Positions 1 to 5,288 of a stretch of 5,288 bases of DNA are shown piece after piece. The notes under the pieces were generated by a model. It was not told the DNA's origin, ran no database searches, and saw only the letters and a program-made list of their open reading frames with translations. This stretch comes from an uncultured bacterium (GTDB taxonomy: Bacteria; Auribacterota; JACPWU01). Each line of letters opens with the position of its first letter. Within the stretch, counting starts at the first letter, position 1. Made by a program: the position numbers and the translations under genes. The stretch covers positions 1 through 5,288 of the forward strand of contig CAZXEQ010000013.1 in NCBI GenBank assembly GCA_964640155.1, in the 5' to 3' direction.

Positions 1-111
1 TATCTATTCTTCTCACCATTCCCCCTGAATATTCGAGAAGATTTAATTGCAAGAATTCAGAAAACCAAACGCCATTATTATAGAGCGGTTAAAGAAAGAT
101 TGTCAATGTAG
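1..111 (+). CDS. Possible 3' end of an unidentified protein-coding gene (partial; 5' end lies outside the window)
   Basis: Frame 1 is open from the window edge to TAG at 109-111. It translates to YLFFSPFPLNIREDLIARIQKTKRHYYRAVKERLSM*, a charged amphipathic-helix-like tail. Frame 3 is also open for 27 codons, so frame choice and coding status are uncertain. I recognise no family. Confidence 0.3.
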   Translation, partial: YLFFSPFPLNIREDLIARIQKTKRHYYRAVKERLSM

Positions 112-125
112 TAAAGATTCTGATT
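111..125. repeat. Left copy of a perfect 15-bp direct repeat, GTAAAGATTCTGATT
   Basis: An identical 15-mer recurs at 385-399, 274 bp downstream. The first base is the G of the TAG stop at 109-111. Confidence 0.9.
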
Positions 126-129
126 TATT

Positions 130-151
130 CTAACCCCAGACGATTGGTACA
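130..151. repeat. Left terminal inverted repeat of the element
   Basis: ctaaccccagacgattggtaca pairs with 356-379: 10 bp plus a 2-nt bulge, a 4x4 internal loop, then 8 bp including one G-U. Confidence 0.7.
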
Positions 152-355
152 CATGGATAAGTATAGGGGGCCATCAAGCTACACTTGATGAGATTCGGAC
201 ACTCAACTCGTCTATTGTCCAACAGAGTGTGAAGACCATTGGAGATCAAGCGAGCAAGGTCCCCGATGTTCATCGGGGGAGCAAGATCTCCTTTGAGTTC
301 ATTTACCTCGCTGGGGTAAATGAACGTGTCTGAACACTCTGTTGGACAATTTACC

Positions 356-379
356 TGTACCAGGTGGCTGGGGGGTTAG
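356..379. repeat. Right terminal inverted repeat of the element
   Basis: tgtaccaggtggctggggggttag is the imperfect reverse complement of 130-151. Confidence 0.7.
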
Positions 380-384
380 TACAG

Positions 385-399
385 GTAAAGATTCTGATT
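385..399. repeat. Right copy of the perfect 15-bp direct repeat, GTAAAGATTCTGATT
   Basis: Identical to 111-125. Confidence 0.9.
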
Positions 400-427
400 G
401 TTAAGAGGCCCTTTATTTCATTAAAAT
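398..427 (+). promoter_or_regulatory. Candidate sigma70-like promoter upstream of lemA
   Basis: TTGTTA (398-403), an 18-nt spacer, then TAAAAT (422-427). This places the transcription start only about 1-2 nt before the ATG at 436, giving a leaderless or near-leaderless mRNA. That conflicts with use of the weak GGTGG Shine-Dalgarno at 428-432, so the call is tentative. Confidence 0.25.
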
Positions 428-435
428 GGTGGCTA

Positions 436-990
436 ATGAGAGTATACTCTGCTTTGTTTTTTATAGTGAGTTGTGCGATGGTGATCATCTGGTTTTACAA
501 TCGCATGATTTCTTTAAGAAAACGTGCTCAGGGTGCCTGGGCGGATGTGGATGTTCAGTTAAAGCGTCGACATGATTTGATTCCTTCGCTTGTGATGTGT
601 GTTGAAGGGTATATGTCTCATGAGAAAAAAACACTTTCTGAAGTGACTATAGCTCGATCCAGAGCTCAAGGGCAGGGAAATCTAGCCGAACGTTCTATAA
701 CCGAAACTGAGTTGGGTCAAAATCTTAAATCTTTAATTCTACTCGCAGAAAATTATCCCAATTTAAAAGCTAACACTACCTTTTTATCCCTTCAAGAAAA
801 ACTGACTGAAACAGAAAATATGCTTCAAAAGGCGAGGCGTTATTACAATGCTGTTGTGAGAGATCACAATACATTCATTCATCAATTCCCTCATCTCATC
901 ATAGCTAAGATTTTTAACTTTCAAGCGTTAGATTTTTTTCAGTTAGAAAGTAAAGAGGAATCAGCGGTCTCAAAAGTATCTTTGAATTAA
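436..990 (+). CDS. lemA: LemA family membrane protein
   Basis: N-terminal TM helix (VYSALFFIVSCAMVIIWFY) followed by LemA-type motifs: AWADVDVQLKRRHDLIPSLV, ENYPNLKAN, ARRYYNAVVRDHN. I prefer ATG 436 to the ORF-track GTG 364, because the 24 extra residues would overlap the structured or repeat region and are not LemA-like. Stop TAA at 988-990. Confidence 0.9.
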   Translation: MRVYSALFFIVSCAMVIIWFYNRMISLRKRAQGAWADVDVQLKRRHDLIPSLVMCVEGYMSHEKKTLSEVTIARSRAQGQGNLAERSITETELGQNLKSLILLAENYPNLKANTTFLSLQEKLTETENMLQKARRYYNAVVRDHNTFIHQFPHLIIAKIFNFQALDFFQLESKEESAVSKVSLN

Positions 991-3647: not shown

Positions 3648-4301
3648 TTATGACTGTTTTTTGGGAATTACAAGTTTCTGCCCTACACGAATGCTGCTAG
3701 GATTTGTGATGTTATTGGCTTGAGCCAGGGCTTGAGCACTAACGCCTAAACGGGCTGCAATCTTTGATAGACTGTCTCCAGGTTGAACAATATAAGAATC
3801 TCCGTTTGCAAAATTGGAGGAAGAAGAACTTGTTCTGGAGGAGCGCTGAATTTCTTGCCAGAGTCGATTATTTTCTTTAGAAACTTCTTCTAAAATAATA
3901 TTCAATTTTTTTTCTGTGGTTGCCTGATCAGAATTTCTCTGGGCTTGCAAAGCTTTAGACTGATCTTGGAAAGTTTTTTGAACATAAGCTTGCAACTGTT
4001 GTTGCTCAGATTGTATTTTCGAGATTTTTTGATCTACACTGTTTATTTGTTTTTGTAAAGCCTCAAGCTTTCCGGCAAGAGCTTGGATGTTACTGTGGGT
4101 GTCTTCTTTGAAATTTTTATTTTGATGAGAGGTTTCTTCTAAATCCACTTGGATTTGATTAAAATTTCTCTTCAGAACAATCATTTCTTCACTTAAAGTC
4201 CCTTGAACTTGAGTAACTTCTTGTTTGGTTGCAACTTCATTCATAGCGCAACCAGAGATGAGAAAACTAGAAAGGAAAAAAAAGGCGTAATGTAACTTCA
4301 T
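3648..4301 (-). CDS. Coiled-coil lipoprotein with a C-terminal LysM peptidoglycan-binding domain
   Basis: Lipobox LISGC (Cys18). Roughly aa 25-150 is Q/E/K-rich and heptad-like (ALAGKLEALQKQINSVDQKISKIQSEQQQLQAYVQK). Ser-rich linker (SSRTSSSSS). LysM motif YIVQPGDSLSKIAARLGVSAQALAQANNITNPSSIRVGQKLVIP (aa 170-213, nt 3663-3794). Confidence 0.85.
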   Translation of the reverse strand: MKLHYAFFFLSSFLISGCAMNEVATKQEVTQVQGTLSEEMIVLKRNFNQIQVDLEETSHQNKNFKEDTHSNIQALAGKLEALQKQINSVDQKISKIQSEQQQLQAYVQKTFQDQSKALQAQRNSDQATTEKKLNIILEEVSKENNRLWQEIQRSSRTSSSSSNFANGDSYIVQPGDSLSKIAARLGVSAQALAQANNITNPSSIRVGQKLVIPKKQS

Positions 4302-4342
4302 GAGAAGTACCTTTTAGAACTTTTTTACAGTCTAAATAGAGT

Positions 4343-4415
4343 TAAGAACAGGCTAAGAGTTAAGTGTAAAAGAAAAATACTTTTACTTAGCCCTTAACTC
4401 TTAGCCCTGTTTTTA
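4343..4415 (-). terminator. Long imperfect hairpin between pal and the LysM gene (possible terminator, attenuator, or REP-like element)
   Basis: Outer stem 4348-4364 / 4393-4410 is 17 bp with one bulged C4405, extendable by 5 more pairs to 4343/4415. Inner stem 4366-4372 / 4380-4386 is 7 bp with loop aaaaata. In the pal sense, the flank after the stem is only moderately U-rich. Confidence 0.45.
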
Positions 4416-4419
4416 TTAA

Positions 4420-4971
4420 TTATTGAGCAGAAACCAAGAAATGAGCTCTTCTGTTTTTGCTCCAAGCATCTTCGTTATGAGAAGGATCTAAGGGTTTTTC
4501 TTCTCCATAACTGACAGTGTGAAGACGGTCTGTGCTGATCCCTAATCCTGTCAAATATCGACGAACGGAAAGGGCTCTTTGTTCACCCAAAGCAAGATTA
4601 TATTCATTAGAACCTCGTTCATCGCAATGCCCTTCAATCATCAATTGAACATGGTCATGGCCGTTTAACCAGTTTGCGATTTTTTCCAGAGTAGAACGTC
4701 CTTCAGACCCGATGTCGGACTTGTCATAATCAAAGAGAACATCTGCGAAAACAAGTGGATCATTAGGCTCTATGAAATTTCCCATATCAGGTTGTTCGCC
4801 TAGAGGGATGTCTTCGCCTCTTAAAGCAGAAGCTTGTAAATCGTCCCCAGCAATACCTGTTCCCATGCCTTCAGAAACAATACCTTTTTTCTTCTTGGCG
4901 CATCCCTGGAAGCTTACTGATAAATAGCAAATACTGGTTAAAACCAAAAGACTCAAAATCAATTTACGCAT
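4420..4971 (-). CDS. pal: Peptidoglycan-associated lipoprotein Pal (OmpA-like C-terminal domain)
   Basis: Signal sequence plus a probable lipidation site (SFQGC, Cys24). Canonical Pal/OmpA block: FDYDKSDI...MIEGHCDERGSNEYNLALGEQRALSVRRYL...SYGEEKP...AWSKNRRAHF. Strong SD AAGGGGGA lies 5 nt upstream. It starts 13 nt after the tolB stop. Confidence 0.95.
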   Translation of the reverse strand: MRKLILSLLVLTSICYLSVSFQGCAKKKKGIVSEGMGTGIAGDDLQASALRGEDIPLGEQPDMGNFIEPNDPLVFADVLFDYDKSDIGSEGRSTLEKIANWLNGHDHVQLMIEGHCDERGSNEYNLALGEQRALSVRRYLTGLGISTDRLHTVSYGEEKPLDPSHNEDAWSKNRRAHFLVSAQ

Positions 4972-4984
4972 TCAATTCCCCCTT

Positions 4985-5288
4985 TCAAAAGGACCATGCT
5001 GGTGTTAAGTGATGTGTTCTGTCCTGCGTCAAACGAATCGTCTGACCATCTACAATATTTGTCATGAAAAGTTGGTGAACGCCACCTACTCTAGAACTGT
5101 AAATGATGTGCCGTCCATCAGGCGCCCATTCCGGTTCTTCAGCTTCACCACCTTCTTGGCTGACTATAGTAATGCTTTCGTCATTTAAATCCAAGACACA
5201 AATTTTAAATCCACCATACATATCAGAACTAAAAACAATTTTATCGCCTTTCGGTGACCAGGAAGGAGAAGCATTGTAACTTCCTTGA
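4985..5288 (-). CDS. tolB: Tol-Pal system beta-propeller protein TolB, C-terminal part (5' end lies outside the window)
   Basis: The frame stays open upstream of the ORF-track Met at 5221, right to the window edge: ...QGSYNASPSWSPKGDKIVFSSDMYGGFKI.... It shows TolB-type propeller repeats (SPSWSPKGDKIVF, EPEWAPDGRHIIYSS) and sits immediately upstream of pal. Confidence 0.9.
   Translation of the reverse strand, partial: QGSYNASPSWSPKGDKIVFSSDMYGGFKICVLDLNDESITIVSQEGGEAEEPEWAPDGRHIIYSSRVGGVHQLFMTNIVDGQTIRLTQDRTHHLTPAWSF

Follow-up and report, generated by a model that had tools for sequence, protein, structure and literature searches.

A putative non-autonomous transposon with a 15–16 bp target duplication between divergent promoters upstream of lemA in an uncultured bacterium

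Miniature inverted-repeat transposable elements (MITEs) of the classical bacterial type, such as Correia/NEMIS, RUP, Nezha, and MITEAba12, are 100–400 bp long, are mobilised in trans, generate target duplications of 2–9 bp, and occur in many copies; to our knowledge, no bacterial MITE with a duplication of 15–16 bp has been described. Duplications of that length are known from insertion sequences (IS), where members of the ISTde1 subgroup of the IS1202 family are flanked by repeats of 15–17 bp and have ends that begin with TGT (bioRxiv 10.1101/2022.12.17.520857; Harmer et al. 2023, PMC10132070), and where the IS1202 subgroup allows Ta/gT at the left end (bioRxiv 10.1101/2022.12.17.520857). Similarly, “not a few” members of IS481, within which IS1202 nests, duplicate ~15 bp, and IS481EU combines TNT..AYA tips with duplications of 15–16 bp and has non-autonomous derivatives (Kojima 2023, PMC10045372). 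Tips of the form TNT...ACA are characteristic of retroviral-integrase-like DDE enzymes (bioRxiv 10.1101/2022.12.17.520857; PMC10045372). The DNA stretch analysed here (the window; 5,288 bp, contig CAZXEQ010000013.1 of assembly GCA_964640155.1) comes from an uncultured bacterium placed in the GTDB lineage Auribacterota, JACPWU01, and carries upstream of lemA a non-coding segment of 258 bp (positions 126–383), which is probably a mobile-element insertion with a target duplication. On balance, this segment appears to be a small non-autonomous DNA transposon, either a MITE or an insertion sequence with an internal deletion, moved by a DDE transposase of the IS481/IS1202 kind.

The segment is bracketed by a perfect 15-mer, GTAAAGATTCTGATT, which occurs at positions 111–125 and 385–399 and is the sole 15-mer repeat within the 5.3-kb window. 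The first-pass annotation, made from the sequence without database searches, had recognised this repeat and estimated its chance recurrence at 0.01–0.05, in agreement with first-order Markov models of the window, as 4.5% of 2000 simulated sequences contain some 15-mer repeat; taken by itself, the repeat is weak, mildly unusual evidence. It becomes significant because it brackets inverted termini and the region's most stable fold and coincides exactly with the borders of a segment that a relative lacks. The left terminal inverted repeat (126–151, plus strand, TATTCTAACCCCAGACGATTGGTACA) and the reverse complement of the right one (356–383, minus strand, TGTACTAACCCCCCAGCCACCTGGTACA) agree in 20 of 26 positions when a single 2-nt gap is allowed, so that the ~24-bp imperfect inverted repeats seen in the first pass are recovered and extended to the very ends of the element. 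Only with A383 as the last base of the element are these termini in register; the target-site duplication then measures 16 bp with one mismatch (left copy 110–125, right copy 384–399) and the tips read TAT...ACA; the alternative boundary yields a perfect 15-bp duplication and an extra G384, which makes the element 259 bp long. Terminal inverted repeats are thus directly flanked by a target-site duplication, as in MITEs generally. An IS630-type TA duplication was also considered and was rejected by sequence reading, as the TA is asymmetric and the 15-mer would be left unexplained.

Direct repeats that abut in-register inverted ends with T(A/G)T...ACA tips read as the footprint of a transposase of the retroviral-integrase DDE type. 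A transposase encoded elsewhere would bind the inverted termini of 26–28 bp and cut at the T(A/G)T...ACA tips, the tips would be joined to target cuts staggered by 15–16 bp, and gap repair would then yield the direct repeat. The IS481/IS1202 group is the most likely source of such an enzyme; among bacterial groups, no other is known in which tips of this kind occur together with duplications of ~15–17 bp, and the family assignment is put forward tentatively, at somewhat less than even confidence. A length of 15 bp does not speak against a transposase, as the earlier annotation had argued, since the DDE transposases of IS481 and IS1202 regularly give duplications of 15–17 bp with TGT...ACA tips. 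What stands of the first-pass view is an insertion-type event in which the duplication lies outside inverted termini and mobilisation in trans is needed; its preference for a duplicated att core is not supported.

Site-specific integration would require that a small circle with the 15-mer as its att core recombined with an identical chromosomal 15-mer, with a tyrosine or serine recombinase acting in trans, and the element would then resemble a cis-mobilisable remnant of an integrative element. The direct repeat is perfect, inverted sequences lie just inside it, as the C and C′ core arms would, and the window is without a transposase, all of which agrees with such an origin. However, the arms GGGGTTAG and CTAACCCC lie 24 bp apart in the reconstructed junction, where a recombinase core has 6–8 bp, and the outer flanks are unlike the inner arms, whereas B and B′ should resemble them; by sequence reading, the closely spaced arms and arm-like flanks of an att core are thus both missing. 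In addition, the target is a promoter spacer, neither a tRNA nor the 3′ end of a gene, the window contains no integrase, and we know of no precedent for an integrative element of 258 bp, which together make this origin unlikely.

The length of the duplication also brings casposons into consideration. Casposases, which are of the Cas1 type, reportedly make target duplications of 14–15 bp, and casposons are said to have terminal inverted repeats, so that a duplication of about that length with inverted ends, as found here, could be left by a miniature casposon derivative. Casposons described so far are large, carry cas1 and polB, are mostly archaeal, and have the 3′ ends of tRNA or EF-2 genes as their targets. 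The likeness is limited to the duplication length and the inverted ends, whereas size, cas1/polB content, and target all differ: the segment sits in a promoter spacer without a tRNA, the window has neither cas1 nor polB, and TNT...ACA tips characterise retroviral-integrase-like DDE enzymes. Casposase integration is therefore regarded as very improbable.

Evidence for an insertion is also provided by the closest relative on record, whose LemA is 80% identical and which is represented by an NCBI metagenome-assembled genome (MAG) contig (L002, GCA_041906865.1) and by an independent Logan contig (L003). Both contigs have the same gene order and an intergenic region ~80% identical to that of the window, and both are without the 258 bp; homology breaks exactly at the repeats and then resumes there. 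The presence/absence polymorphism expected of a MITE is therefore seen, with an empty site in both contigs that is not clean. The check for an empty site proposed in the first pass thus has a positive outcome, as the segment is absent and homology resumes at the repeats, with the caveat that the site is imperfect and 8 nt too long. At positions 713–737 of L002, and identically in L003, 9 bp of the repeat core are imperfectly duplicated in tandem (GAAGATTCT / TAAGATTCA); this could be an excision footprint, point to a hot spot of insertion, or stem from slippage unrelated to the element.

The same comparison can be read in the opposite direction, with the segment being ancestral, possibly as an RNA gene or a regulatory hairpin, and lost in the relative by deletion between repeats that would represent an old local duplication. 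More distant relatives carry other genes upstream of lemA, so that no alignable outgroup polarises the event, and the L002 site holds ~1.5 copies of the repeat core (AAGATTCT / TAAGATTCA), which places it between the one-repeat and two-repeat states. Against a deletion, the two repeats are 15/15 identical while the neighbouring DNA has diverged by ~20%, a divergence at which such identity is expected with a frequency of 0.8^15 = ~3.5%, and the G+C content of the element lies 15 points above that of its flanks (48% versus 33% in the flanking intergenic DNA). Insertion is favoured over deletion because of these two observations; the duplication is probably younger than the split from the relative, judging from the identity of its copies, and the higher G+C content of the element points to a foreign origin.

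The right junction is confirmed by an independently assembled Logan contig (L001) from the same organism, in which the rightmost 93 bp of the element are followed by the right repeat and lemA, all identical to the window. Position 1 of this contig corresponds to window position 292, so that the contig breaks inside the element and not at its edge; this break could reflect low coverage, the hairpins, or sequence common to other copies in the sample. The left junction is supported by the NCBI contig alone, and a search for a close homologue of the relative's inverse-autotransporter protein, sought for left-junction support, found none on record (best match 45% identity). An assembly artefact or chimera might be suspected, given that the window is an entire 5288-bp MAG contig and that L001 ends within the element, but the exact agreement of L001 from the right 93 bp through lemA argues against it, and a chimera would not yield a perfect target duplication around in-register inverted ends. 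An artefactual origin is for these reasons considered very improbable.

The element is without coding or known-RNA content. Its only open reading frames (ORFs) encode 47 aa and 34 aa, and a search of 5.8 billion proteins with a concatenated six-frame pseudo-protein gave no homologue (E up to 1), which bears out the first-pass impression that no credible ORF is present; a length of 258 bp without coding capacity falls well within the size generally accepted for MITEs (under ~600 bp). No Rfam 15 covariance-model match was found in the element, either in a scan of the whole window or in a scan of 100–410 on both strands with E up to 10, no tRNA or tmRNA was predicted by ARAGORN, and no promoter-like site was detected inside it. 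Compared with shuffled sequences, the element folds with much greater stability on both strands and as DNA (z −6.5, −6.9, and −8.0). Extreme folding is typical of MITEs, and the internal palindromes make this element a strong hairpin or cruciform former.

The outer stem of the fold consists of the two termini. Within it, an inner inverted repeat pairs 214–236 (ATTGTCCAACAGAGTGT..., containing ATTGTCC) with 328–350, the two arms being 91% complementary with 17 bp perfect, and it encloses two central hairpins, one at 241–291 with GGAGATC...GATCTCC around CCCCGAT-GTTC-ATCGGGG and one at 297–325 with an 11-bp perfect stem, GTTCATTTACC / GGTAAATGAAC. A 62-nt segment is exclusive to the left arm and carries a further hairpin at 172–190 with a 7-bp perfect stem (CATCAAG / CTTGATG). 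The possibility that the inner inverted repeat (214–350) delimits a nested MITE was rejected by sequence reading, as no duplication flanks it. The very stable fold would also suit an ancestral RNA gene or regulatory hairpin, and the G-U pairs slightly favour the plus strand (7 versus 4 on the minus strand), a difference that does not decide the relevant strand. However, an RNA gene is opposed by the lack of an Rfam match, by the lack of an internal promoter-like site, and by T(A/G)T...ACA tips within inverted repeats, which would be unexpected. In addition, a conserved candidate promoter of lemA lies downstream of the element, so that the element would not be a lemA leader. The ancestral origin as a whole is accordingly judged improbable. 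With an insertion of a non-autonomous transposon as the preferred explanation, no host function need be assumed for the element.

The insertion site lies between two putative divergent promoters. The gene to the left is read leftwards out of the window, which has only its first codons (1–19, minus strand; a start region conserved in L002, with the start at about 16–19); its ortholog in L002 (1–627, minus strand) matches the Pfam inverse-autotransporter family IAT_beta with an E-value of 2e-13. Because this neighbour is on the minus strand, positions 20–435 form a divergent intergenic region. The first pass had placed the element behind a TAG stop codon, but the TAG at 109–111 is no gene's stop, given the orientation of the neighbour, and the plus-strand ORF that ends there is spurious. 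A putative promoter, TTGACA-18-TATAAT (77–106, minus strand), which matches the sigma-70 consensus at 12/12 positions and whose hexamers are conserved in L002, is directed toward the inverse-autotransporter-like gene and away from the element. On the other side, a putative lemA promoter, TTGTTA-18-TAAAAT (398–427, plus strand; 9/12 consensus), has its hexamers and its spacing to the ATG conserved in L002 and stands before lemA (436–990, plus strand), which encodes 184 aa and matches Pfam LemA with an E-value of 1e-52. The function of both promoters is inferred from the consensus matches and from conservation. The −35 box of lemA overlaps the right duplication by 2 nt, and both promoters are left intact by the insertion. 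Without the element and one copy of the repeat, the divergent −35 boxes are 17 bp apart, and the duplication fills almost exactly that spacer; this spacer would thus have been the landing site, with both promoters kept. The −10 box of lemA (TAAAAT, 422–427) ends 8 nt upstream of the ATG at 436, with identical spacing in the relative, and the lemA mRNA may be leaderless or nearly so.

A comparable position relative to promoters emerges from published insertions of the IS1202 family. For the long-duplication groups of this family, the two papers considered here report no target (bioRxiv 10.1101/2022.12.17.520857; Harmer et al. 2023, PMC10132070). When 38 long-duplication flanks beside the left inverted repeat (IRL) were taken from Supplementary Table 1 of the Siguier preprint (bioRxiv 10.1101/2022.12.17.520857), 21 of them from the ISTde1 group and 17 from the IS1202 group, the IRL-side flanks were found to end in TGTCAA, and the 38 flanks have the opposite-strand consensus TTGAC-N17-TAnAAT, whose −35 box directly adjoins the duplication. 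Matches of at least 4/6 in both hexamers at this fixed position are present in 20/38 flanks, compared with 1.2% of shuffled flanks. This suggests that long-duplication elements of the IS1202 family may insert just upstream of sigma-70 promoters, a pattern unmentioned in the Siguier preprint and in Harmer et al. In the window, the perfect promoter lies 3–4 bp from the left duplication and the −35 box of the weaker one overlaps the right duplication by 2 nt; the same 2-nt overlap occurs in ISArba1, one of three 15-bp cases among the flanks taken from the table. The promoter context of the element may lend support to an IS1202-like choice of target, with a differing offset.

In duplication length and tips, the element resembles the published IS1202 family. 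As in the ISTde1 subgroup, a duplication within the range of 15–17 bp (15 bp without a mismatch, or 16 bp with one) borders inverted ends of ~24–28 bp with a TGT start; if A383 is the end of the element, the right tip is TGT and the left one TAT, a form tolerated at the left end in the IS1202 subgroup. Siting near the −35 box of an outward sigma-70-type promoter may also be shared, according to our own reading of Supplementary Table 1. The combination of TGT...ACA tips with a ~15-bp duplication also agrees with IS481. Unlike IS1202 and ISTde1 elements, the segment is only 258 bp long, has no transposase gene, and is without the AATGTC motif, and the −35 box is 3–4 bp off. The IS481 members with ~15-bp duplications and IS481EU/Banshee share the TNT...AYA tips, short inverted ends, and duplications of 15–16 bp, a comparison made by description and not by end sequence; IS481EU occurs in parabasalid eukaryotes, and these elements have no known link to a Chlamydiota-like host. 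With the classical bacterial MITEs, the element shares the non-coding character, inverted ends, strong folding, and intergenic site, but those elements have duplications of 2–9 bp and many copies, whereas here the duplication is 15–16 bp and one copy is seen.

A number of observations weigh against an IS481/IS1202-type MITE. With a profile built from 57 published ISTde1-group ends (Supplementary Table 1, Siguier preprint) and leave-one-out scoring, the two ends of the element score −16.9 and −25.4 bits, compared with +0.9 to +32 (median +24) for real ends. The AATGTC motif present family-wide at positions 19–24 is absent, with GGTACA near that place, and the best internal look-alike, AAATTGTCC (343–357, in the inner repeat), scores 5.3 bits, which is at chance level, as ~0.25 such matches are expected by chance within the element. 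The −35 box lies 3–4 bp from the repeat, where the family pattern is flush, and an insertion placed at random in the 142-bp divergent promoter region could well fall near a −35 box. The corresponding site in L002 and L003 reads GGGGAAGATTCTTAAGATTCAGATT, 8 nt above the one-repeat reconstruction and 7 nt below the two-repeat one. Furthermore, a single copy is known, multi-copy status being the core of the MITE definition, the window has no transposase, and no autonomous partner with matching ends was found in it or in the fetched loci.

The end-sequence profile led to the rejection of ISTde1 membership, and nothing significant was obtained with the internal-motif profile. Neither TGTACTAA nor CTAACCCC occurs in any published IS1202-family end, the lone CTAACCCC in the table sitting in a flank, and none of these ends resembles TGTACTAACCCC. 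A MITE of the IS1202 family is not mentioned in the Siguier preprint (where “MITE” occurs 0 times in the main text) or in Harmer et al., and a literature search gave nothing relevant on MITEs with 15-bp duplications in bacteria or in Chlamydiae. From its sequence features, the element seems to behave like a derivative of the IS1202-type group, yet it is not assignable to the ISTde1 subgroup. It is conceivable, although doubtful, that it is the first non-autonomous representative of an undescribed IS481/IS1202-like branch, marked by new end sequences with a TGTAC tip and GGTACA at about position 22, which would share with the long-duplication IS1202-family elements a hitherto unreported preference for DNA just upstream of sigma-70 −35 boxes; the choice of target in such a branch would possibly be guided by promoter DNA or by bound RNA polymerase.

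Further copies were sought by several routes. An exact 23-mer of the inner stem gave 0 matches in 185,579 species-representative genomes, a set that does not contain the window's own genome, as the absence of its own 23-mer from the collection indicates, and an exact 21-mer of the inner stem gave 0 matches in JGI metagenomes. In IMG/VR viral contigs, a 17-mer gave six single one-strand matches, which is chance level, as a true copy would give two; the best of these, in contig L009 (22 nt), lies inside a phage coding sequence. Degenerate multi-seed scans based on an 87-codon open frame across the element yielded nothing in the genomes, the JGI metagenomes, or IMG/VR. Similarly, BLASTN of the element against plasmids and phages returned no match, and blastn and nhmmer against all fetched loci recovered only the element's own Logan copy.

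For the locus itself, the consequence is small, as the element is probably a selfish insertion that moves two divergent promoters 274 bp apart and destroys neither of them. MITEs with duplications of 15–16 bp would indicate that long-duplication IS481/IS1202 transposases, which have been little studied, are active in Chlamydiota-like bacteria. Of more interest than the element itself is a by-product of the analysis, the promoter-flush pattern of published IS1202-family insertions; if confirmed, it would offer a testable model of promoter-guided transposition and possibly a tool for promoter-proximal insertion.

In addition to lemA, whose nearest named homologues are found in Chlamydiae/Chlamydiota MAGs (58–65% identity), the window contains a DUF2207 gene, a DsbD_TM/CcdA-like gene, a LysM gene, pal (OmpA family), and tolB. 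In a more distant Chlamydiae MAG (L004), a Y1_Tnp (IS200/IS605-like) gene with a weak DnaA_C match is located at the contig start (1–339), and a 728-bp gene-free stretch (4273–5000) lies upstream of lemA, in which minus-strand ORF remnants are apparent by eye only. A long intergenic hairpin is present between pal and the LysM gene (4351–4406 in the window and 4573–4625 in L002), with a 14-bp stem, GGCTAAGAGTTAAG / CTTAACTCTTAGCC, that is identical in the relative and a loop region that differs; its sole Rfam match is a sub-threshold plant microRNA, and it may be a terminator, a processing hairpin, or a regulatory hairpin. The DUF2207 protein has a C-terminal tail rich in Gly and Ser, SGGSGFSSGGSSGGGFGGGGGGAW, encoded at 2641–2715.

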